Shown here: one piece after another, positions 10,225-19,379 of the stretch
Layout: the number at the start of each line of letters is the position of its first letter
Numbering within the stretch: the first letter of the stretch is position 1
Virus record (IMG/VR): IMGVR_UViG_3300037418_002559
Coordinates: 79,999-100,317 of that record
Reading direction: 5' to 3' (one strand)
DNA length: 20,319 bases
From: a virus
Lineage: Duplodnaviria; Heunggongvirae; Uroviricota; Caudoviricetes
Made by a program: the position numbers and the translations under genes
The notes under the pieces: model-generated
Told to the model about the DNA's origin: nothing
Seen by the model: the letters and a program-made list of their open reading frames with translations, nothing else
Databases searched by the model: none

Positions 10225-11271
10225 TTAGATACCGTCCAAGTAGTAAGCGGTGGTGGTCCGCTTGTAAATGACCTGGCTGATGCAACCGGCGAACATTGTT
10301 TCGTACGCACCGCCTGCGCGGGTCGTCGGGACGGAGAGTGCCTGGATCATCGGCTGTGGAATCTTCAAGTACACCGATTTCTTGGAGTTCTTGTAGAAGA
10401 AGCCACGGTCAAGTCCATTACCGCCAGTGGGGGACCCTGGCGGCAGCGTGTTACCACTACCAGTACCACTGATCCATGGGTTGGGGAGGAAGTTGATCTT
10501 GAAGTCAATCCCGTTATGCGCTGCAACGCAGTTCTTCTCCACGTACTCAATGGTGCTCATTGCAACAGGCGAGCCGCCGATTGCGATGGGCTGAGTAAGT
10601 GTAGCGAACTGGGTGTACGGAATCAGCAAGCGATCGGCCATACCCTCAGCGGCGGAGTAACCGGAGTTCTCCACAGTCTGATTGAGCGCAAAGTTGATGT
10701 CCGCAAGAATTTCCTGCGGCGTCTTTCGCGCCCAAGTGGACGACCCAGCAGCGCCGTTCGGCGCTACCGACTCGAAGATGTTCGGGTTGTTGATCAGTCC
10801 GGGATCGCCAAGGAATCCGGCGTAGACGACGAAGTCCAGCGCCTTGCCCCAGGTGGTCTCGACCGACTCCTCGTAAAGCTCTTGCAAGCTGAACGGGGGA
10901 GCCTGTCCGGTGCGCAGTGCGGTCTCCATGCGGCGCAGGTCAATCCAGGTGATGGTCATTCCCATCGCCCAGTTGTACGTGCGCCAGATGCCCTTCTGGA
11001 TGTCGGCCTGCGCTTCGGGGATCTCCGTGTTGTTGGTACCCTGCAGCCCGTAAAATTGGGTGCCGGTGGATGCGTAGTTGGAAGCGAACGCCGAAATGAA
11101 TTCCGGGAAGCCTCCGCCTACTTCAACAGCGATGTCACGTTTGTGCGTGACAGCCTGCAACGGACGAACTAGGTCCGTGTCGATGAGTTCCAGCTGGCTT
11201 TGGAGGAACGCCAGACCGGATGCGCCCGACGCGTCGAAACCGCGCGAACGATTTGGAATAGTACGCTTCAT
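10225..11271 (-). CDS. Major capsid protein (DUF2184 / encapsulin-like HK97 fold)
   Basis: RGFDASG...LAFLQSQLELID; ALDFVVYAGF...GLINNP; WARKTPQEILADIN...ADRLLIP. AAGGAG SD. Confidence 0.92.
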   Translation of the reverse strand: MKRTIPNRSRGFDASGASGLAFLQSQLELIDTDLVRPLQAVTHKRDIAVEVGGGFPEFISAFASNYASTGTQFYGLQGTNNTEIPEAQADIQKGIWRTYNWAMGMTITWIDLRRMETALRTGQAPPFSLQELYEESVETTWGKALDFVVYAGFLGDPGLINNPNIFESVAPNGAAGSSTWARKTPQEILADINFALNQTVENSGYSAAEGMADRLLIPYTQFATLTQPIAIGGSPVAMSTIEYVEKNCVAAHNGIDFKINFLPNPWISGTGSGNTLPPGSPTGGNGLDRGFFYKNSKKSVYLKIPQPMIQALSVPTTRAGGAYETMFAGCISQVIYKRTTTAYYLDGI

Positions 11272-11285
11272 TGTCTGTGCTCTCC

Positions 11286-12089
11286 TTAGGCCGCGTTACG
11301 AACCTTGATGGTGATTTCGAGGATGTTGTTGCTGTCCAGATGGCCGGTACGTGCGACGACATTGGGCAGCGCCACGAGGTTGCTGAGCGTGATGGGCGTT
11401 CCGCCCGGGATGATAGCCGTGGTGTTCTGGTTGAGCACGATGGCAGTCGTACCGCCACCACTGACGATGTAGCTGCCAGGAGCGATGCCGAAACCGGTCA
11501 CGACCTGCCCATTCTGCGTATTGGCTGCAGAAGCAAGCGTAACCGCAGTACCAATAGCGGCTGCGGTGGCCGTAGTGCTAAACAGGTCGGTGGCAGCTGG
11601 ATTGGTTTCCCAATCTCCGATGACACCAGCAGGCACAGCTCCGTTGAGAACGACGCGTGTGTAAACCTGCGCCTCCGCCAGTGGCGCACCAACGCTCAAC
11701 AGAATGGTCCCATTACCGCGCTCCAGCACTTCGGACATCTGCTCGTTGGCGTAGTAGCCAACTTGCTGGATGCCTGGCTGCTGTCCAGCCGGGTAGGTGA
11801 GCTGAGTTTTAACCTCGCGCACTGCCATGCCAGCGAACGCCGAAGCGACGAGCGCAATGCCAGCAGCCGAATGTCCTACGAGGTCGGCCACCGAGGTAAC
11901 TGCACCGCCGCCGTTGCCGACGCCGGGAAGGATGACCGCAGGGTCTCCGAAGTTAAGATTGTTGGTTGCGGTGTACGGAATGAACTGACGCGCCATGATG
12001 ACGCGCTCGCCGAAGCGGCTAACCGTACCTTGGAAGCCGTTATTCGGCCCTGTCACATTGATGACTTGGCCGAAGCTGAACTGTGGCAT
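11286..12089 (-). CDS. Capsid decoration/cement protein with an inserted beta-domain
   Basis: Lies between scaffold and capsid. NNGFQGTVSR, LNFGDPAV, FAGMAVREVK and VLERG motifs. TAATG coupling with the upstream gene. Confidence 0.75.
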   Translation of the reverse strand: MPQFSFGQVINVTGPNNGFQGTVSRFGERVIMARQFIPYTATNNLNFGDPAVILPGVGNGGGAVTSVADLVGHSAAGIALVASAFAGMAVREVKTQLTYPAGQQPGIQQVGYYANEQMSEVLERGNGTILLSVGAPLAEAQVYTRVVLNGAVPAGVIGDWETNPAATDLFSTTATAAAIGTAVTLASAANTQNGQVVTGFGIAPGSYIVSGGGTTAIVLNQNTTAIIPGGTPITLSNLVALPNVVARTGHLDSNNILEITIKVRNAA

Positions 12090-12985
12090 TATTTGCCTCC
12101 TTTATGGGCGGTGTTGTAGAACTCCTGCATCTTGCTGATCGGATCTGCCTTGCCAGCGTCCGTAGCGCGAGTGCGGTCAGTGGGATTGGGACTACGGCCA
12201 GCTTTGTCACGCGCACGTGCCGAGGAGGCAAACGCACCGTAACTTCCGGTCGAAGTACGGCTAGACTTCTTTACAGAATCGAGCGCGCGGTTGAATGTAG
12301 CCTGGAACGCCTTGTCGTTGGAGCGAGCTGCGAAAGGACGAATCATGCGCAGTACGGCTGTGGCCGCGTCTGCCGCACGTGCACGATCGGACGCCTTACC
12401 CTTGTCACTGGCTACTTCCACGTCCTCCTGATCATCGTCGGAGTCGGGATCTGGGCTTTCGCCCTCCTCATCCATGGCCTCTTCGCCGCTGGCTTCCATT
12501 GACTCGCCGGGGCATTCCTCACCGTCGTGCGCCTTGCCACATTCTGCGCACGGCTCTTCGTCGTCCGCCTCGCCAGCAAGTACAGCTTCCAGCTCCGACG
12601 GATCAACTTCGGGATCGTCGTCATTCGCAGCATGCTCCGCCTCGCCTTCTTCCTCAGAAAGGAATTCGTCGAGAAGAGTTTTCAAAGCCTCGATGTTGGC
12701 GTCCTTGGCTTTCGCATCCTTGGCACGCGCGTCCAGAGCACGATCCAGCGCGCGCGCCAGTGCATCGTGCGCCCGATTGCTGTCCTCTGCTTTGAACTCA
12801 TTTTCCTTGAGCGCAGCCGGCACTTCGCCGTCCTTGCTGCGCGCATCTTCGGCGTTGGGTTCTTCCGGCTCGTGCAGAGCCTCCGCCGCCTCCATGATCT
12901 TCTCAGGGTCGGCATCCGTGGCTCGCGCCATCTCGATGATATGCTTTCCCATGAAAAGACGAAGCAGTTTGTTGGGTTTTGCCAC
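12089..12985 (-). CDS. Putative nested in-frame scaffold protein (298 aa) from an internal GTG
   Basis: TAAGGAG (12995-13001) lies 9 nt before an in-frame GTG at 12985 (codon 250), at the linker/scaffold boundary. Confidence 0.6.
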   Translation of the reverse strand: MAKPNKLLRLFMGKHIIEMARATDADPEKIMEAAEALHEPEEPNAEDARSKDGEVPAALKENEFKAEDSNRAHDALARALDRALDARAKDAKAKDANIEALKTLLDEFLSEEEGEAEHAANDDDPEVDPSELEAVLAGEADDEEPCAECGKAHDGEECPGESMEASGEEAMDEEGESPDPDSDDDQEDVEVASDKGKASDRARAADAATAVLRMIRPFAARSNDKAFQATFNRALDSVKKSSRTSTGSYGAFASSARARDKAGRSPNPTDRTRATDAGKADPISKMQEFYNTAHKGGK

Positions 12986-13732
12986 GGGTTGCTTCTCCTT
13001 ATTTGGTTTGAAATTGATTGCTATTGGTGGGTACGCTGGAAGGGCTTCGATAACTTCCGCCACTGGCGCAGGTTGTACATCTATTGGTAAACTTGTGTTG
13101 TCCTCGGGCGCAGCGTCTTCGATGCGCACAAGATCACCCGCGCGACCGCTCGGCACCACGGCATTGTGGTTCCCGAGCATGTTGCACTGGATGATTTTTT
13201 CGCCGTCGCGTTCAATGCCGAAGTCGTAGCCAAGACTGAGCTCGCGCGCCGCCTTGCTGCGAACCTTGCCAATGAGCGGCTCAGCGCTGATAACGAGATC
13301 GGCGATGATAGGCCATTCACCGTCCTCCAGCGGCTCCGTGCCCTTGCGGACATTCTGGATGTGCCCCTTGGCGTACTTGTTGAAGTTCTCTGGATCGACG
13401 AACTCACCACCGGGCGGGTGACCGTCGGTGATGGGCTTGCCGTTGAGCGAGGCCAGGAACTCTGGGTTGAACACCTCGCTCGCAGGTCGGTAGAGCTCGA
13501 TGGACGCCTCCGGGTTGCTGATGTCCACACCAAGATCGGCGGCGCGCTGCTGCGGCAGATCCTTGACGGCGTACTTCTGCCAGCCGGTGCGAGCTATCGG
13601 GCAGCCGACGACGACGAGGTAGCCCTCGTCCGTCATGTGGATGTTGTCGGTGAGCGGGCTGGCGAGGTAGCCGTGCGGGCTGCGCGTCGCGGGCAGCACC
13701 TCCAGGTCTTCCAACTCCTCGGTGTCGATCAT
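12089..13732 (-). CDS. Prohead maturation protease (DUF2213-like) fused to a scaffold domain
   Basis: GYLVVVGCPIARTG, PITDGHP (H105), RELSLGY (S166), NHNAVVPSGRAG, followed by an acidic/helical scaffold. ATGA overlap with the upstream gene. Confidence 0.92.
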   Translation of the reverse strand: MIDTEELEDLEVLPATRSPHGYLASPLTDNIHMTDEGYLVVVGCPIARTGWQKYAVKDLPQQRAADLGVDISNPEASIELYRPASEVFNPEFLASLNGKPITDGHPPGGEFVDPENFNKYAKGHIQNVRKGTEPLEDGEWPIIADLVISAEPLIGKVRSKAARELSLGYDFGIERDGEKIIQCNMLGNHNAVVPSGRAGDLVRIEDAAPEDNTSLPIDVQPAPVAEVIEALPAYPPIAINFKPNKEKQPVAKPNKLLRLFMGKHIIEMARATDADPEKIMEAAEALHEPEEPNAEDARSKDGEVPAALKENEFKAEDSNRAHDALARALDRALDARAKDAKAKDANIEALKTLLDEFLSEEEGEAEHAANDDDPEVDPSELEAVLAGEADDEEPCAECGKAHDGEECPGESMEASGEEAMDEEGESPDPDSDDDQEDVEVASDKGKASDRARAADAATAVLRMIRPFAARSNDKAFQATFNRALDSVKKSSRTSTGSYGAFASSARARDKAGRSPNPTDRTRATDAGKADPISKMQEFYNTAHKGGK

Positions 13733-15417
13733 ACCGGCAGCACCTCCCTGCTGTCCTTTGCGCGCGCCCTATCCTTCAGCTCGTGCTTTATGTCTTCGAT
13801 GTCTTCCTCTATTTGGCGCGTGTTGCCGCCGTACTGCGGCTTTCCCATCGTCCGCGCGTCCTTCAGCGCTTTTTCAAGGTCGACAAGGGTGCTGCGCAGA
13901 GCGGACTCGCTCCATTCGCGAGTATTCGCTATGTCCTTGGCACGTCCAGCAGCGGCCTTCTTGGCCATGCCAGCAGCGCCGTACTTCTTGCGCCCGATGG
14001 AGGCCGCCAGCGCGCCGGGCTCGGCGACGCCCTTCTCATGACTGAGTTCGCCCTTGAGCTTGGCGAAGCCCTCGTGTTCGTCGGTCGCCTTTCCATTGCG
14101 GTACAACTTCGCACATTTGGGGCTTTTGTCTAGGTGCGCTTGTAGCTGCTTCGAGTCTGCAAATACTTTCGAGCACCCAGCGCATTGTACGCGTGCGTAG
14201 CTGATGTCGCCGATGCGCACTCTACCCGGCAGCACCTTAGTTCCGCGCACCGTGACCGATTCCCCAGCCCTTGTGCGCTCGATCGCCACGCGAATCGCGG
14301 TGTCCGCTGAGTCGCAGACGCTCACCTTGCCGCGACCGGGATGCGTGTACTGCTGCGCGAACCTGGCCTGACAGGCCTCGATGCCGTCGCGCGCCTTGGT
14401 CTCGTTGGCGGCGTCACCGGCGCGGCGGTAGCCGGAAGCGGCTGCGCGGTAGCTGTCCAGCGCGCGCGCGCGGTCGCCCGCAATCTCGTACTGGACGGCC
14501 CGCGTCATGTGGTCTTGCGGCTCGGAGCCGGAGGTCTGTAGCGGCAGCGTGGCGATGTTGTCGCCAGCCTTGGCGAATCTACCTCGGTCGCGCGCGCCGC
14601 GCGAAGCGTAGGTCGCTTCGCCGTTCTCCGTCGGCAGCGGCACCAGATTGCTGGTCTTGACGGCTATGGGTAGCACGTCCTTGCCGCGCCGCTTCAGTGC
14701 CTCGCGCGCTTTCTCCTGCCGCGCGTTCTTGTCCAATTTAGCCCAATCGGACTCGCTGATACCGAGCGCCGCGCGAACCTCGTCCGCCTGTATGTCCTTC
14801 GCCTTCATGTCTGCAGCCTTTCCAGCGCGCTCGAAGAACGCGCAAACGTCGTGCTCGTGTACTATAGGCAGCCCTGCACCGTTCTTGGGCTGCTTGCTGC
14901 TTTTGACCATGGTTGGTTGGTCGCAGCCACTGTCCTTGGCCATGTATTTGCAGTGCTCGCAGTCGCGCGCGCCTACTCCGCCGCCCTTCTCGAACCCGGT
15001 GACCGGCTCGGCGGAGTCCTGCGACTTGGTGACTCCAGCCTCGTGCTTCTTCAGCGCCACGGCGCGCTCCGGGTCGCCGACAGGCTGGAGTTCGTCCTTG
15101 GTGCGCGCTGCCTCGTAATACGCCAGTATCTCCTTGGCATTGACCGGATCAGCCGCCTTGACGAATTCCGCGAACGTATTCTTACGGCCTGCCTTTAAGT
15201 ACGCCGCCGTAAGATCTTTGAGGCTTCGCGCCAGGGCTGCGCTGGTTTTCGAACCGCGTGGATTCTTCGGCCCGAAGCCCTTGAGCTTGGTGTAGTCGAA
15301 GTCCCTGCCCCGCGCCTTGCTCAACGCGATGGCTACGGCCTGCTTGTGAGGCTTGCCAGCCGCCTGCTCAACCTCAATGTTGTGGCCGATGTTCTTCTTA
15401 CCCGCCAGTAGCGGCAT
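13729..15417 (-). CDS. 562-aa multi-module head-associated protein (candidate polyprotein)
   Basis: Probable start ATG 15417 (GGGAG SD). The N-terminal NIGHNI...GKPHKQAVAIALSKA peptide resembles a small domain common in phage head modules. It is followed by a 4-Cys module, helical modules and a C2HC zinc-finger-like motif. Confidence 0.75.
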   Translation of the reverse strand: MPLLAGKKNIGHNIEVEQAAGKPHKQAVAIALSKARGRDFDYTKLKGFGPKNPRGSKTSAALARSLKDLTAAYLKAGRKNTFAEFVKAADPVNAKEILAYYEAARTKDELQPVGDPERAVALKKHEAGVTKSQDSAEPVTGFEKGGGVGARDCEHCKYMAKDSGCDQPTMVKSSKQPKNGAGLPIVHEHDVCAFFERAGKAADMKAKDIQADEVRAALGISESDWAKLDKNARQEKAREALKRRGKDVLPIAVKTSNLVPLPTENGEATYASRGARDRGRFAKAGDNIATLPLQTSGSEPQDHMTRAVQYEIAGDRARALDSYRAAASGYRRAGDAANETKARDGIEACQARFAQQYTHPGRGKVSVCDSADTAIRVAIERTRAGESVTVRGTKVLPGRVRIGDISYARVQCAGCSKVFADSKQLQAHLDKSPKCAKLYRNGKATDEHEGFAKLKGELSHEKGVAEPGALAASIGRKKYGAAGMAKKAAAGRAKDIANTREWSESALRSTLVDLEKALKDARTMGKPQYGGNTRQIEEDIEDIKHELKDRARAKDSREVLPV

Positions 15418-15428
15418 TGTCGTTCTCC

Positions 15429-15737
15429 CTAGACTGCTGCGGTCAGTGCGCCGGTTGCGAGGTTGACGGTGGACGTGTTGCCCGGCCCTCCCGCCGCTAC
15501 TCCGGCGATGTTGGTGGCTCCGCTCACGGTGAGCCATTCTGTCTGTCCGGCCAGGATGGTGACGCCGGTGGACTGCGTAACGGTGGTTGTGCCGTCACCC
15601 AACATGACCGTGATGTGGCATGGCCCCAGGTTGGCTACGCGCAGCACCGCGCCGGAGCCGGGAAGTGCGATGTTGGTGGACGCGAAGCCGAAACTGGTGC
15701 CTTGCGCGGCGCTTACGCTGAAAGATCCTGCTGCCAT
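15429..15737 (-). CDS. Small all-beta protein, probable minor virion/capsid surface protein
   Basis: 102 aa, AAGGAG SD, alternating beta pattern (LRVANLGPCHITVMLG...GVTILAGQTEWLTV), Gly/Thr/Ala-rich. Confidence 0.55.
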   Translation of the reverse strand: MAAGSFSVSAAQGTSFGFASTNIALPGSGAVLRVANLGPCHITVMLGDGTTTVTQSTGVTILAGQTEWLTVSGATNIAGVAAGGPGNTSTVNLATGALTAAV

Positions 15738-15739
15738 GA

Positions 15740-16411
15740 CTAAGTTCTCCTTGCCTTATCTAAATGCTCTATGGCGGTGCGCAACAGCTCGGTCTTTTGG
15801 CTCTCCGTGCGCCGCATGTATTCTTTGATGTCTATCCCCAACGCATCCAGTATCTTGTGCATCGGATACCGATTGAGCGGCAGACTACCGTCGAACGCCC
15901 TACGCCTCGGCTTGTATTCTGCCAGGTTGTAAGTATGGCAGCTGGTAGCCACTTTGCGCTCCTTGTACCAAGCCAACAGCGCCGCCAGCAGCAGCGCGCG
16001 GCTCAAGACGCCGTCTTTAGCTTGCCCGCGTTCAGTTGGCTCTAACAATCCGTAATAACGCGGTTCAAGTAACCCGCGCCCGGTGCCATCCAGTGGATGT
16101 GGATCGTGCACCAACTTGCCGTCGTAGGCTACACAAGCATGTAGGCCACCGCGTGGGCTTATACCTTCAATCGTGCTGTAGCCGCTCGGCTTACTACCAC
16201 TAAGCGGCACGCGACGATACCGTAGACCGCGCTCGCCGAGCCAACCTTGTACGTTGGCCCAGTAATCGTCAAGCTCGGTAGCGTTATGCATGTATTTGCG
16301 CGGCCCGTCGAAGTCGACAACGTCGGACTCCGGTACGTCAAAAATGGAGGCGATACAAGAGCGAAAGCAAGTGCCGTTATCACCTACGCGAGACTGCGTC
16401 ACTAAGCGCAT
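15740..16411 (-). CDS. Papain-like (C39-like) cysteine peptidase domain plus C-terminal modules
   Basis: Q6...NGTC15FRSCIASIF, GGLH91ACV and VHD103P give a Gln/Cys/His/Asp arrangement. The C-terminal ~90 aa are separate modules. Confidence 0.7.
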   Translation of the reverse strand: MRLVTQSRVGDNGTCFRSCIASIFDVPESDVVDFDGPRKYMHNATELDDYWANVQGWLGERGLRYRRVPLSGSKPSGYSTIEGISPRGGLHACVAYDGKLVHDPHPLDGTGRGLLEPRYYGLLEPTERGQAKDGVLSRALLLAALLAWYKERKVATSCHTYNLAEYKPRRRAFDGSLPLNRYPMHKILDALGIDIKEYMRRTESQKTELLRTAIEHLDKARRT

Positions 16412-16802: not shown

Positions 16803-19379
16803 TTACCGCTGTACAGCAGGGCTACAAGGCGCAGTCATATCTGCCGTAGCGATCCACCGACGAAACATTGGCATGGTGAACGGCGTTATGGCTGCGAACG
16901 TTTTCTTTGATAGGTGATGGCCTAACATGTAGTCTTCCAGCGCCGACTCTTGCGTGTGGTAGCCGAGCATCACCTTGTGCTCGTCGAATCGCTTTCCGTT
17001 GATATCGTACTGGTCCACGACGTAGACGTTGCTCGACTCCGGTGCAGGGCCAATGTAGCAGTCTAGGCTGTCCTCATCGGCCGCAGGTGCGCCATCGATA
17101 AAGCCGTAGTCTGCTGGCATGTTGACGCTCCACGACCTGCCGTCTGGCGTGATGCCGGAGCGCACCGTGCCCTGCCGCGACTCAACGCGTACTGGCATGG
17201 CGTGATAGAGCTCGAAGTCAATGGCGCGCTGCGTCATACTGGAAGCGCCATCGTCGTCGGTGGCGCGGTCACGTTCCATACACTTACTACATTTTTCTGT
17301 CTGCGGAAGTCGTGCCCATTCTTCCGCAGTGGCAACCAATAGTGTGCCACCGCGCCTAGCTGTTGCACCACACTTCGACTTACTGGTGTTGGTTTGACTG
17401 GGTGCGTGGAACTTCTGTGCGGAGTCGGTGGCTTTAGTCCTGCCAGTAGCTGGAACCCTCCGCGTCGGATAGTTCAACGAGATGAACTGTTCGACGCCGT
17501 CTTTAGGGTCGACGGCCTTTTGTTTGCCAGTTTTCTTTAGTGTCAAGTACTCAGAACCAAACCGCCAAAGGAAATGTTCTCCAATTGCCAGGTCGCGGAA
17601 CAATACAGATTCCTCCGCATCCTCCGCATCCTCCGCATCCTCCGCACGCACCTTCACGTCCTTGTTCGGACGGTAGGCGACGATCTCGCCGGTGTCGAAC
17701 AACACCTGTACGGTAGGCTCTCCAAATAAGTCCGTCGTACCAGTGGTGACCTTCCGCACGGTCAGCAATTTGCCGTTGACCAGCACCTTCTCGCCTGCAC
17801 TGAGACCAGACGGTAGTGTGTCCATGGCTGGCGCTGTGTCCTGCGCTTCCCCGGCCTTTGCAAGCAGCTGCTTCTTCGCGTCCTCCTTGCCTTCTTCGTT
17901 CTCAGCTTTGATAGCCTTGCCGGGGCTATCCGCCTCGTTCAAGCCAGCGCCTTCACCGCCGAACAGACCATCACCCAGCTCGCCCTCCGATTGAACGTCG
18001 TCACTGAGCTTAGCGATGAACTCGTCATCGAGGTTGGTGCCGATGCCGGTAATGTCGCTGGACTGCTTAACTTCCTGCGCCACCTTGCGCGGCGACATAA
18101 TACCGCCGTTGAGGTACACAGTAGTGGTGTCGGCCACGGACTTGGCCAGCTCGGCCTTCTCCTTCTCGTCCAGCACGCGTATAGAAGGGCAATTCAGATC
18201 CAGATCGTCTGGCACTTCGCCCAACTCCGACATGCACACTACTGGGTACAGCTTCTCCAGTTGCGGAACCATGTAGGTGGATTGATCTGTAGCTATCTTC
18301 TCCTCGTAGATGCGCTCGTCGCCATCTCCGGCCTGCCCAAGTCCGCTGTACGTACGTCCGAACAGACGCGTCACCGGCATCTGCGCCGCTCCCGCCAAGT
18401 TCAACTGGAACAGCTGCAGGACGTCGCTCAGCCCGCCGAAGCTGTACTGTGTCGACTCAAGACCGCCGTCGGCTGGCAGCGGAATCAGCGAGTTGTTCGA
18501 CATGAGGTGATTGACGGCGGACATGCGCTGCTCGAACTTCTGCGAGGCCAGCTGCGACGATCCGAGCCCGGACAGCAGTTCGGCCAGCTGTGGGAACTTC
18601 ATGCCGAGCAGGTTGGCGCGGAAAGAAAGCGACAGGATGTTCCAGTACATGTTGTCCAGCATGGTGATGGACTCGTACGTCGGCTCCAGCACGCTGATGC
18701 CCCAGTAACTCTGCGCTTCTACCTCCGGCGTCGGTACGGTTGGCCCAAGGAAGCGCAGCAGCCGAGACGCATGCACCTGAAAAGCAGAGCCGCCGTTTAC
18801 GCGCACCTCGTACATCTCCGGCTTGTTGAAATCTAGCGGGCGATTTATGTCAGTGCACACATCGCCGACAGGCGTGATGCCTGCCCAGCGATCAAACGGG
18901 ATAACACCCTTGTACGCACCGATGCGAATGGACTCTAAATCCAATGGCTGGTCGAGTTCATTCTCCTGCCCATCAATAACGATGAGCGCGCCCGCGCCAC
19001 CAAATAGACGGCCCCAAGTGAGCCCGGTCAGTACGTTGTTCTTAGTGTTCGTACGCCGAATGGCGCGATCGACGCGCGTGAGATCCTTCGGCTCGAGATC
19101 GCTGGTCAGCTTGGGCCAAGCCTTGACCATGTCTTGCGCTGGTACTTCGACAATACGACGACTAATCCAGTGATTGCGGAACAAGGTGATCAGCTGCCAG
19201 TAATCGTAGCTGATACGCACCATGGTGTACTCAGCGCCCTGCCCCAACGACGGCGTACCAAATCCCATACGTGCTGCCGCATTGGTGAACATATCGGCAG
19301 CGGTGGCCGACGTGGCGCCGTGTACCCCCATGGCTTGCTCGAATGGGTTGGCGTGCTTACGTTTGCGCGGCTTCGGCAT
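16803..19379 (-). CDS. Portal protein (DUF1073-like) with a C-terminal multi-domain extension including an inorganic pyrophosphatase-like (InPase) domain
   Basis: Core motifs RRIVEVPAQDM, WGRLFGG, VHASRLLRF, WGISVLE, AAQMPVTRLFG in aa 1-~465. InPase-like motifs VESRQGTVRSG...W...ADYGFI...ADEDSLDCYIGP...FDEHKVMLG in aa ~720-850. Confidence 0.92.
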   Translation of the reverse strand: MPKPRKRKHANPFEQAMGVHGATSATAADMFTNAAARMGFGTPSLGQGAEYTMVRISYDYWQLITLFRNHWISRRIVEVPAQDMVKAWPKLTSDLEPKDLTRVDRAIRRTNTKNNVLTGLTWGRLFGGAGALIVIDGQENELDQPLDLESIRIGAYKGVIPFDRWAGITPVGDVCTDINRPLDFNKPEMYEVRVNGGSAFQVHASRLLRFLGPTVPTPEVEAQSYWGISVLEPTYESITMLDNMYWNILSLSFRANLLGMKFPQLAELLSGLGSSQLASQKFEQRMSAVNHLMSNNSLIPLPADGGLESTQYSFGGLSDVLQLFQLNLAGAAQMPVTRLFGRTYSGLGQAGDGDERIYEEKIATDQSTYMVPQLEKLYPVVCMSELGEVPDDLDLNCPSIRVLDEKEKAELAKSVADTTTVYLNGGIMSPRKVAQEVKQSSDITGIGTNLDDEFIAKLSDDVQSEGELGDGLFGGEGAGLNEADSPGKAIKAENEEGKEDAKKQLLAKAGEAQDTAPAMDTLPSGLSAGEKVLVNGKLLTVRKVTTGTTDLFGEPTVQVLFDTGEIVAYRPNKDVKVRAEDAEDAEDAEESVLFRDLAIGEHFLWRFGSEYLTLKKTGKQKAVDPKDGVEQFISLNYPTRRVPATGRTKATDSAQKFHAPSQTNTSKSKCGATARRGGTLLVATAEEWARLPQTEKCSKCMERDRATDDDGASSMTQRAIDFELYHAMPVRVESRQGTVRSGITPDGRSWSVNMPADYGFIDGAPAADEDSLDCYIGPAPESSNVYVVDQYDINGKRFDEHKVMLGYHTQESALEDYMLGHHLSKKTFAAITPFTMPMFRRWIATADMTAPCSPAVQR
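17611..17646. repeat. Perfect 9-bp tandem repeat (TCCTCCGCA)x4 encoding AED-AED-AED-AEE in the portal extension
   Basis: Read directly from the sequence. Confidence 0.95.

Follow-up and report, generated by a model that had tools for sequence, protein, structure and literature searches.

A modular head-operon protein of an uncultured phage: a candidate capsid-loaded polyprotein cut after aspartate

The DNA analysed (20,319 nucleotides, hereafter the window) is the final 20 kb of a 100,317-bp record from an uncultured virus, IMGVR_UViG_3300037418_002559, which CheckV rated 100% complete. It carries a head operon, read from the minus strand, in which the gene for a 562-residue protein (P0001, here called the target) is followed by one for a head-maturation protease of the DUF2213 family. 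The target had been picked out in a model-made note on the letters of the window (the sequence-only reading), and the open reading frame (ORF) claimed there is real:

13729..15417, minus: whole coding sequence of the target, 562 amino acids (aa) plus TGA; its stop overlaps the ATG of the next gene (ATGA)
15425..15430, minus: Shine-Dalgarno-like AGGGAG, overlapping the stop codon of the upstream 102-aa gene
12089..13732, minus: DUF2213 head-maturation protease (aa ~20-215) with an acidic/basic scaffold part; presumed processing enzyme

The start codon is the ATG at 15417-15415, with AGGGAG (15430-15425) 7 nt upstream. A longer reading of 602 aa, starting at 15537, was rejected since it overlaps the upstream 102-aa gene and at least 45 relatives begin with MPL. 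The ATGA overlap through which the target was said to be translationally coupled to the protease gene is present, and the gene downstream was identified in a Pfam scan as DUF2213 (PF09979, E 8.8e-34).

The operon runs in the order portal, 223-aa protein, 102-aa protein, target, DUF2213 protein, 267-aa protein and major capsid protein. The portal combines PF06381 with a C-terminal inorganic pyrophosphatase (InPase) domain, PF18823; the 223-aa protein between portal and target (15740-16411) is phrog_5845; the 267-aa protein occupies the position of a decoration protein; and the major capsid protein is PF09950. The order portal, target, DUF2213/scaffold, decoration, capsid was kept in every related locus that included the neighbour genes (L002-L013), and the pairing of target and DUF2213 gene was also found in related loci that included the downstream gene. 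In locus L002 the same head families appear under the newer Pfam names Pa193_gp24 and E217_gp27, which identifies the head module as one of the PB1/Pbunavirus type.

A protein of about ten unrelated modules

About ten small modules, none related to another, make up the target. The sequence-only reading had listed eight; all eight were found, and the count was corrected to about ten units followed by a short tail:

15301..15417, minus: module 1 (aa 1-39), conserved leader; helical hairpin, predicted local distance difference test (pLDDT) 90-97; ends RGRD; matches phrog_2423 over aa 1-36 (E 5.3e-10)
15094..15249, minus: module 2 (aa 57-108), three-helix unit ending RTKD, after a disordered linker (aa 40-56); in 14/80 relatives
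15016..15093, minus: module 3 (aa 109-134), ELQPVG-DPERAxALKKHEAGxTKSQD, with an invariant SQD end; in 40/80 relatives
14818..15015, minus: module 4 (aa 135-200), four cysteines (C153, C156, C165, C193), probable zinc unit
14677..14817, minus: module 5 (aa 201-247), helical, pLDDT 89-95, ends RGKD
14560..14676, minus: module 6 (aa 248-286), extended and disordered, LPxxxKTSNLVPxP...YA, with two Asp sites (GARD277 and KAGD286)
14206..14559, minus: module 7 (aa 287-404), the commonest core (61/80 relatives); three-helix front resembling a tetratricopeptide repeat (TPR) plus a small alpha/beta part; ends RIGD404
14080..14205, minus: module 8 (aa 405-446), C2HC zinc-finger-like beta-beta-alpha unit (C411, C414, H427, C434), ends KATD
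13933..14079, minus: module 9 (aa 447-495), basic helical unit EHEGFAKL...IGRKKYG...AAGRAKD
13753..13932, minus: module 10 (aa 496-555), helical hairpin ending RAKD; in 12/80 relatives
13732..13752, minus: C-terminal tail SREVLPV (aa 556-562), part of a conserved D-x-[KR]-E-V-x-P-V-COOH

AlphaFold2 (with a fragment alignment) predicted confident blocks at aa 1-38, 57-107, 116-126, 188-247, 292-403, 408-443 and 448-557, joined by low-confidence linkers, and the predicted template modelling score of the whole target was low (0.35). The independent domains for which an AlphaFold check had been proposed were seen as these separate confident blocks. The modules are unrelated to one another, since BLAST of the target against itself at E<=10 yielded identity only and no internal repeats.

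The TPR-like hairpin described earlier (aa 300-352) forms the first part of a longer conserved module of 105 aa (296-400), in which E311, H359-P360, R381-T382-R383 and G385-E386 are invariant. With VIA-align this front gave, against TPR proteins, Z scores of 9-10 and root-mean-square deviations of 1.4-2.4 over 57 residues, a range common for helical models; VIA-align and an ESM Atlas shape search with module 7 matched the TPR-like front only, not the alpha/beta part, and no TPR match to the target was found in the Pfam scan. Module 8 has the ligand pattern C-x2-C-x12-H-x6-C in a beta-beta-alpha unit predicted at pLDDT 87-91, and its match to Pfam zf-C2H2 (PF00096) stayed sub-threshold at 18.4 bits (cut-off 25.2; E 0.0028). 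The AlphaFold2 model of module 4 was poor. In an ESM Atlas feature search, module 9 retrieved unnamed viral clusters below 0.9 and one auto-named 'Antitoxin family protein' (0.89), on which no reliance was placed. Otherwise, the whole target had no match among PDB sequences at E<=1, the PHROGs search of each module gave nothing below E 0.02 except for module 1, and Foldseek with the full model against the PDB returned nothing at E<=0.001, only local TPR-like matches. The proposal that the modules are DNA-binding or anti-defence factors thus found no support. In a 1270-aa relative (P0194), modules absent from the target (aa 579-602 and 1051-1082) gave sub-threshold matches to a helix-turn-helix (HTH_38, E 0.0011) and to DnaJ-type CxxCxGxG zinc units, which weakly suggests that certain modules are DNA- or metal-binding.

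Relatives were collected in a near-length search (74 proteins including the query) and an exhaustive one (404 proteins at E<=0.001). Across 80 of them the ten modules occurred in 41 patterns of presence and absence; all ten were shared by only 2, and a median of 60% of the length of each relative had no counterpart in the target. Sizes ranged from 97-135 aa (module 1 plus the IGRKKYG unit: P0090, P0097, P0117) to the 1270 aa of P0194. Modules changed place (P0049 has the C-terminal hairpin straight after module 1) and were duplicated (two IGRKKYG units in P0059 and P0062). In alignments, residues 40-108 of the target have no equivalent in P0015 and P0010, whose module 1 runs straight into the LQPVG module: P0015 reads ...SKARGKD↓DLQPVG... 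(↓ marks a candidate site), the target ...SKARGRD↓(residues 40-108)...ARTKD↓ELQPVG.... In the same way P0002 has extra cassettes bounded by GKD↓...SKD↓ and GD↓...ATD↓. Whole modules are therefore gained or lost between Asp sites, as the sequence-only reading had supposed, and the search for stand-alone homologues that it had proposed was also rewarded: modules 1, 4 and 9 occur as small ORFs, module 4 in proteins of 73-121 aa and module 9 in proteins of 60-135 aa (33 matches of at most 140 aa) as well as at the C-termini of other proteins. By these comparisons the protein is a true mosaic, and a single integrated fold with conserved full-length orthologues was ruled out. A search for longer proteins found no protease fusion in the clade of the target, only longer polyproteins (993-1270 aa). 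Neither the whole target nor module 9 alone had a match by tblastn in 50,697 phage records; of the modules of the target, only module 1 was found in cultured phages, and relatives of the whole target have so far come from uncultured phages only.

Base composition had been offered as a further sign of accretion. The counts of G and C cited (45/60 and 31/60) are correct, but they do not speak for separate origins of the modules, since the standard deviation of 60-nt counts was 4.2 in the target, 4.1 window-wide and 3.8 under a binomial expectation; heterogeneity as a sign of foreign origin was rejected for this reason. The gene as a whole has a GC content of ~63%, against 55.9% for the genome. 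The protein has a pI of 9.5 and a net charge of +26, and its pieces are mostly basic.

Conserved ends and the leader in cultured phages

The two ends of the protein vary less than what lies between them. Module 1 was kept in 45 of the 80 relatives, and most relatives end in [KR]-[AG]-[KRT]-D-x-[KR]-E-V-x-P-V-COOH whatever module precedes; in an alignment of 24 tails, D, E, P and V never varied. A different constant sequence (LPLPVKVTKHA, SVLRRVEV, CIYS..) comes after the last Asp in certain sub-lineages. At about a quarter of the internal sites the next residues are a comparable [LV]-x-P-[VI], which suggests that the tail resembles either a docking peptide or the primed residues of a strong site.

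Module 1 takes three forms: alone in ORFs of ~41-71 aa, at the N-terminus of DUF2213 proteases, and at the head of polyproteins. It was present in 83 phage records, and an ESM Atlas cluster of 118 DUF2213 proteins showed the same N-terminal fold. The cluster nearest to module 1 has DUF6496 in only 15% of its members and is a lead only; Pfam DUF6496 was not reported on module 1 at E<=0.1. In Pseudomonas phages PB1 and SCUT-S1, in KPP22M3 and in Serratia phage MTx, module 1 is a protein of 68-69 aa in the slot portal, MuF, module 1, ..., protease, and in the translated sequences of PB1 and KPP22M3 it is followed by KKAKD or KTAKD. In gp26 of Burkholderia phage BcepB1A (L005:5001-6737), annotated 'head maturation protease', the leader precedes a NUDIX domain (aa 46-118, E 5.6e-17), a DUF2213 domain (aa 167-337) and a scaffold part, so that this head protease carries a nucleotide-hydrolysing enzyme. 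Phage phiEap-2 has a stand-alone module 1 in its head module, with a scaffold but no protease gene annotated in the stretch viewed.

The homologue in SCUT-S1 (gp22; 68 aa, 7.46 kDa) was detected in purified virions by mass spectrometry, with 7 peptides and 77% coverage (PMC6521218, Table 1). The record of KPP22M3 annotates ORF084 as 'virion protein', and Pa193 gp20 and gp21 were both found in virions, although which of them is the module-1 homologue could not be confirmed. The virion association foreseen in the sequence-only reading is thus partly supported, by a stand-alone homologue of the leader in Pbunavirus virions; packaging and delivery of the target itself are presumed. These data bear on the idea that the target is a non-virion protein, a late-expressed regulator or host-directed cytoplasmic factor that merely sits in the head operon. 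Its zinc-finger-like and TPR-like elements would suit such a role, as would the restriction of its relatives to uncultured phages. However, it occupies a fixed slot between the portal and protease genes with start/stop overlap, its leader is common to a proven virion protein and to the N-termini of DUF2213 proteases, and its site motif is common to structural head proteins (see below), so that we regard this idea as very improbable.

An aspartate-ending motif and its presumed protease

The junctions between modules carry the motif [KR]-[AGST]-[KRTQ]-D. Eight junction Asp residues (39, 108, 134, 247, 277, 286, 404 and 446) lie at or beside the first residue of low-pLDDT linkers, in agreement with the earlier statement that most module boundaries coincide with K/R-x-x-D motifs. 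Counted as [AGT][KRT]D, the target has 11 sites against 2.42 +/- 1.45 in shuffled sequences, and 81 family members have 660 against 188 expected. The most over-represented tripeptide of the family is AKD (285 against 41, z 38), ahead of words from conserved modules, and K or R occupies position P4 at 55% of sites although the search pattern left P4 unconstrained. The final position is strongly Asp-specific. Family members contain 433 copies of [KR][AGST][KRTQ]D and 40 of the Glu-ending form, and the scaffold parts of 120 DUF2213 proteins contain 566 and 8, respectively, though Glu is the commoner residue; the Glu-ending version is thus 10-70 times rarer. Per 100 aa there were 0.02 motif copies in protease domains, against 1.47 in the scaffold parts and 0.88 among family members. 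Across the 30.9 thousand aa encoded by the genome, 17 of 22 strict sites fell in the target, the scaffold, the portal extension and a second polyprotein-like gene.

In BLAST comparisons between relatives, 14-17% of the points at which similarity broke off lay no more than 2 aa from a site (8% by chance), and insertions or deletions (indels) of at least 20 aa had both ends at [AGST]xD in 6% against 1.1%, a comparison limited by the fuzziness of the alignments. All 14 candidate-site Asp residues are encoded by GAC. DNA microhomology at the sites as a mechanism of recombination was rejected, as only AAGGAC/CGCGAC are shared, which is too short.

The same type of site occurs in other proteins of the head, while being absent from the protease domain. 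In the scaffold part encoded in the window, [AGST][KRTQ]D occurs six times and the stricter [AGT][KRT]D five times, and two further features of the window are:

11233..11271, minus: codons 1-13 of the major capsid gene, for a presumed propeptide, short and variable, ending R-G-F-D↓A-S-G
17256..17267, minus: RATD (portal aa 705-708), directly before the C-terminal inorganic pyrophosphatase domain

The capsid proteins of five related phages begin with a variable leader of 13-19 aa followed by a conserved R-[AGV]-F-D↓A-[AS]-G, and those of PB1 and BcepB1A have ...F/S-A-M-D↓S-N at residue 64 (AMD64↓S65 in PB1). The cryo-electron microscopy model of the near-identical capsid protein of Pa193 begins at residue 66 (PMC11456595). 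In the portal (16803-19379, minus), PF18823 occupies aa 726-843 and is preceded by KATD (aa 649-652) and RATD; an Asp site at the junction of portal and InPase was kept in 5/5 related portals. The position of these sites suggests that the pyrophosphatase may be released from the portal inside the head.

More than one head gene appears able to act as a carrier of modules, since homologues of the 223-aa protein in L010:4234-6036 and L011:136-2202 are stretched to 600-688 aa and contain ten Asp sites. The second polyprotein-like gene lies outside the window (G000:C1:5083-7125, minus; L041:1084-3126); it encodes 680 aa with no Pfam family, lacks the module-1 leader and has nine [AGT][KRT]D sites, most of them followed by VAPVG, AGPLG or AEVKPV (as in GKD↓VAPLG and AKD↓AEVKPV).

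The strong specificity for Asp, together with the presence of the motif in scaffold, portal extension and capsid propeptide, argues for a sequence-specific protease site rather than linker bias, since a bias of linker composition would not separate Asp from Glu. The obvious candidate for such a protease is the cognate DUF2213 protein encoded in the same head operon. The PHROGs families that match it are labelled 'head maturation protease', and H105, S166 (in SLGY) and H189 (in GNH) were invariant in 44 DUF2213 sequences, including those of PB1, BcepB1A and MTx. This order of residues would fit a His-Ser-His serine protease of the kind of T4 gp21 and herpesvirus assemblin. A note in the MTx record reports HHpred similarity of its protease to T4 gp21 (PDB 5JBL). 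When the protease domain was modelled with the last 48 residues of the target, the predicted complex scored 0.32 and the best control 0.00, with at least 89% of contacts common to the runs and a partner pLDDT of at least 55. Of 80 solved complexes, 58 came up to the mark set for this score, as did 2 of 110 mismatched pairs, but at scores of 0.60 or less only 7 of the 80 reached it and both mismatches did, so that the model gives weak support to the interaction.

Proposed processing and its relation to known systems

Taken together, the mosaic architecture, the motif, the conserved ends and the shared gene order make it rather likely that the target is a polyprotein which is loaded into the capsid and there cut after Asp by the prohead protease expressed with it. 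The target would be a precursor for the interior of the head, composed of the 39-aa leader, exchangeable modules (~3-12 kDa, mostly basic, two of them with Cys/His metal-binding patterns) and a fixed C-terminal end. Made together with the DUF2213 protease-scaffold from the overlapping gene, it would be built into the procapsid, where the protease would cut after the Asp of [KR]-[AGST]-x-D at the module joints and leave roughly ten pieces. The same cutting step would trim the capsid propeptide, free the portal pyrophosphatase and dismantle the scaffold. The released pieces would remain in the head with the DNA, at least some of them probably entering the next host, and the gain and loss of modules as cassettes between sites would make the gene an evolvable loading rack.

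Several observations weigh against this explanation. Motif copies at 152, 162 and 344 sit inside conserved folded modules and the junction copies at 208, 495 and 555 lie within predicted helices, so that either the pattern over-counts or some sites are unused. The 77% coverage of SCUT-S1 gp22 means that its KKAKD is either cut with both halves retained or not cut at all. A DUF2213 profile matched, among PDB sequences, only Pa193 gp24 (9B40, 'scaffolding protein') and not T4 gp21/5JBL. No module matched a family of known function in the Pfam, PHROGs or structure searches, and the phiEap-2 stretch with a module 1 and no annotated protease gene indicates that the role of this module is not purely that of a protease tag.

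The motif copies in helices and folded modules, and the 77% coverage of the 68-aa SCUT-S1 homologue across its own KKAKD, would be expected if the target were an uncut, flexible, multi-domain minor head or internal protein in which [KR]-A-K-D is a habit of linkers or a motif binding DNA, the capsid interior or the portal. We rate this as improbable. That Asp is preferred to Glu 10- to 70-fold and that protease domains lack the motif both point to specific recognition; the motif stands at the boundary of the capsid propeptide, with solved Pbunavirus capsids beginning 1-2 residues later, and at the portal/InPase junction; and Asp-bounded cassette indels occur in the same family as a fixed tail right after the last site.

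The strongest of the alternatives, though still unlikely in our judgement, accepts the processing and denies the cargo: the target would be a disposable core, filler or auxiliary scaffold whose fragments are lost from the head ahead of DNA packaging or while it proceeds, and whose modules play no part in the next host. The site type and translational coupling that the target shares with the scaffold-protease gene would fit this, as would the finding that no module matches an effector family, and in T4-like and phiKZ-like phages most propeptide fragments exit the head (PMC10052503). A filler, however, would need neither folded zinc-binding modules nor a core with invariant E, H, RTR and GE residues in 61/80 relatives, and the rapid exchange of modules (41 patterns) fits cargo with a part in conflicts better than it fits components of assembly. 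The mostly basic nature of the fragments favours their staying with the DNA, and a module-1 homologue is retained in mature Pbunavirus virions.

A wider proposal, which we regard as possible but on balance doubtful, is that leader, Asp sites read by DUF2213 and a D-x-K-E-V-x-P-V tail for docking or cleavage make up a portable capsid-loading code, used in a large uncultured clade and in minimal form in the therapeutic Pbunaviruses and BcepB1A, such that any small inserted cassette would be packaged, released and delivered. On this proposal the gene would be a rapidly evolving rack of injected effectors, and DUF2213, a head protease among the most widespread in phages, would receive its first rule of cleavage (Asp at P1, a small residue at P3, a basic one at P4). 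DUF2213 head proteases matched 580 cultured-phage records, including Pseudomonas, Klebsiella, Vibrio and Burkholderia phages. With an Asp-ending rule the mature ends of proteins would become predictable in DUF2213 phages, and it would help to account for unassigned density in capsids such as that of Pa193. The large repertoire of modules would be a catalogue of uncharacterised, probably injected mini-proteins. If leader, sites and tail do direct loading, nature would offer in them a compact means of bringing small proteins of any kind into capsids; such a code would matter for early delivery of counter-defence proteins by phages and for loading proteins into capsids in the laboratory.

Internal proteins IPI, IPII and IPIII of phage T4, as well as Alt and core proteins, are loaded into the prohead, processed by the protease gp21 and injected with the DNA. 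These proteins are the subject of a review (PMC9026906) and are also treated in PMC10052503. The target resembles these internal proteins in its presumed short terminal loading signal, in the proposed trimming after an acidic residue and in the variability of the locus; some of the T4 members are anti-defence proteins. Each T4 protein has a gene of its own, a capsid-targeting sequence of ~10 aa and a single [LI]-x-E site, whereas the target has many unrelated modules in one frame, [KR]-[AGST]-x-D sites and a fixed tail. Its leader, 39 aa ending in RGRD, is not a T4-type [LI]-x-E targeting sequence, and its presumed protease is of the DUF2213 family, for which the profile search gave no link to T4 gp21.

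The closest described specificity is that of giant phage heads, where proteins such as phiKZ gp175 and SPN3US gp245 are involved in cleavage at A/S/G-x-E (PMC10052503, PMC5694885). The small P3 and acidic P1 residues are alike, many head proteins including portal and ejection proteins are cut, and long propeptides are cut repeatedly. The proposed rule differs in having Asp at P1 and a basic P4; in giant phages P1 is Glu, the protease belongs to another family, and the parts cut off are mainly N-terminal propeptides of paralogous inner-body or ejection proteins rather than rows of shuffled mini-domains without relation to each other.

Polyvalent proteins join unrelated domains in one polypeptide encoded beside virion genes and have been proposed to be packaged, delivered and proteolytically released (Iyer et al. 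2017, PMC5512222); the same paper notes for BcepF1 a fusion of portal and InPase like the one in the window. They are large, with recognisable enzymatic or conflict domains and usually their own embedded metallopeptidase, while the modules of the target are of 26-118 aa. The target shares their location among virion genes, but neither two or more domains of the conflict repertoire (MPTase, ART, SNF2, methylase, ParB-like, InPase and others) nor an embedded peptidase was found in it. To call it a miniature polyvalent protein, as had been done, is therefore a conceptual analogy only: the hallmark domains were absent in the Pfam scan and the presumed protease is the product of a separate gene. 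In the Dar system of phage P1 (DarA, DarB, Hdf, DdrA/B, Ulx), anti-restriction proteins are loaded at head assembly and ejected with the DNA, some after processing by the head protease (PMC12810830, PMC9024508). These differ from the target in being separate large products with an ordered loading hierarchy, no common leader/tail code and no multi-module polyprotein.

Head-internal proteins processed by a protease (T4, phiKZ/SPN3US, P1) and packaged multi-domain proteins (the polyvalent ones; PMC5512222) are thus already known. Four features appear to be undescribed: a row of unrelated, shuffled mini-modules in one frame, an Asp-ending site, a leader/tail frame and an assignment to DUF2213 proteases. 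In the literature on DUF2213, on Pbunavirus protease cleavage and on phage polyproteins, no description of the Asp site or of the target was found, nor any paper giving the cleavage specificity or substrates of DUF2213; papers on phiCbK, 7-7-1 and Bas63 held no usable cleavage data.

Among cultured phages, the leader occurs in the small proteins of Pbunaviruses (PB1 gp20, SCUT-S1 gp22, KPP22M3 ORF084) and in BcepB1A gp26, whose N-terminal module is 51-66% identical to that of the target over 36-37 aa and has the same place in the operon. The module is followed by [KT]-A-K-D in the Pbunavirus proteins and by TAQD in BcepB1A gp26. In the Pbunavirus form one short helix comes after the site (68 aa in total) and in BcepB1A the leader is fused to the protease, whereas the target has nine further modules and the EVxPV tail. 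In the PB1 record, ~550 bp between gp21 and the protease gene (12620-13170; L004:6345-6895) have no annotated feature, and the protease ORF has an alternative ATG, 39 nt upstream of the one annotated as its start.

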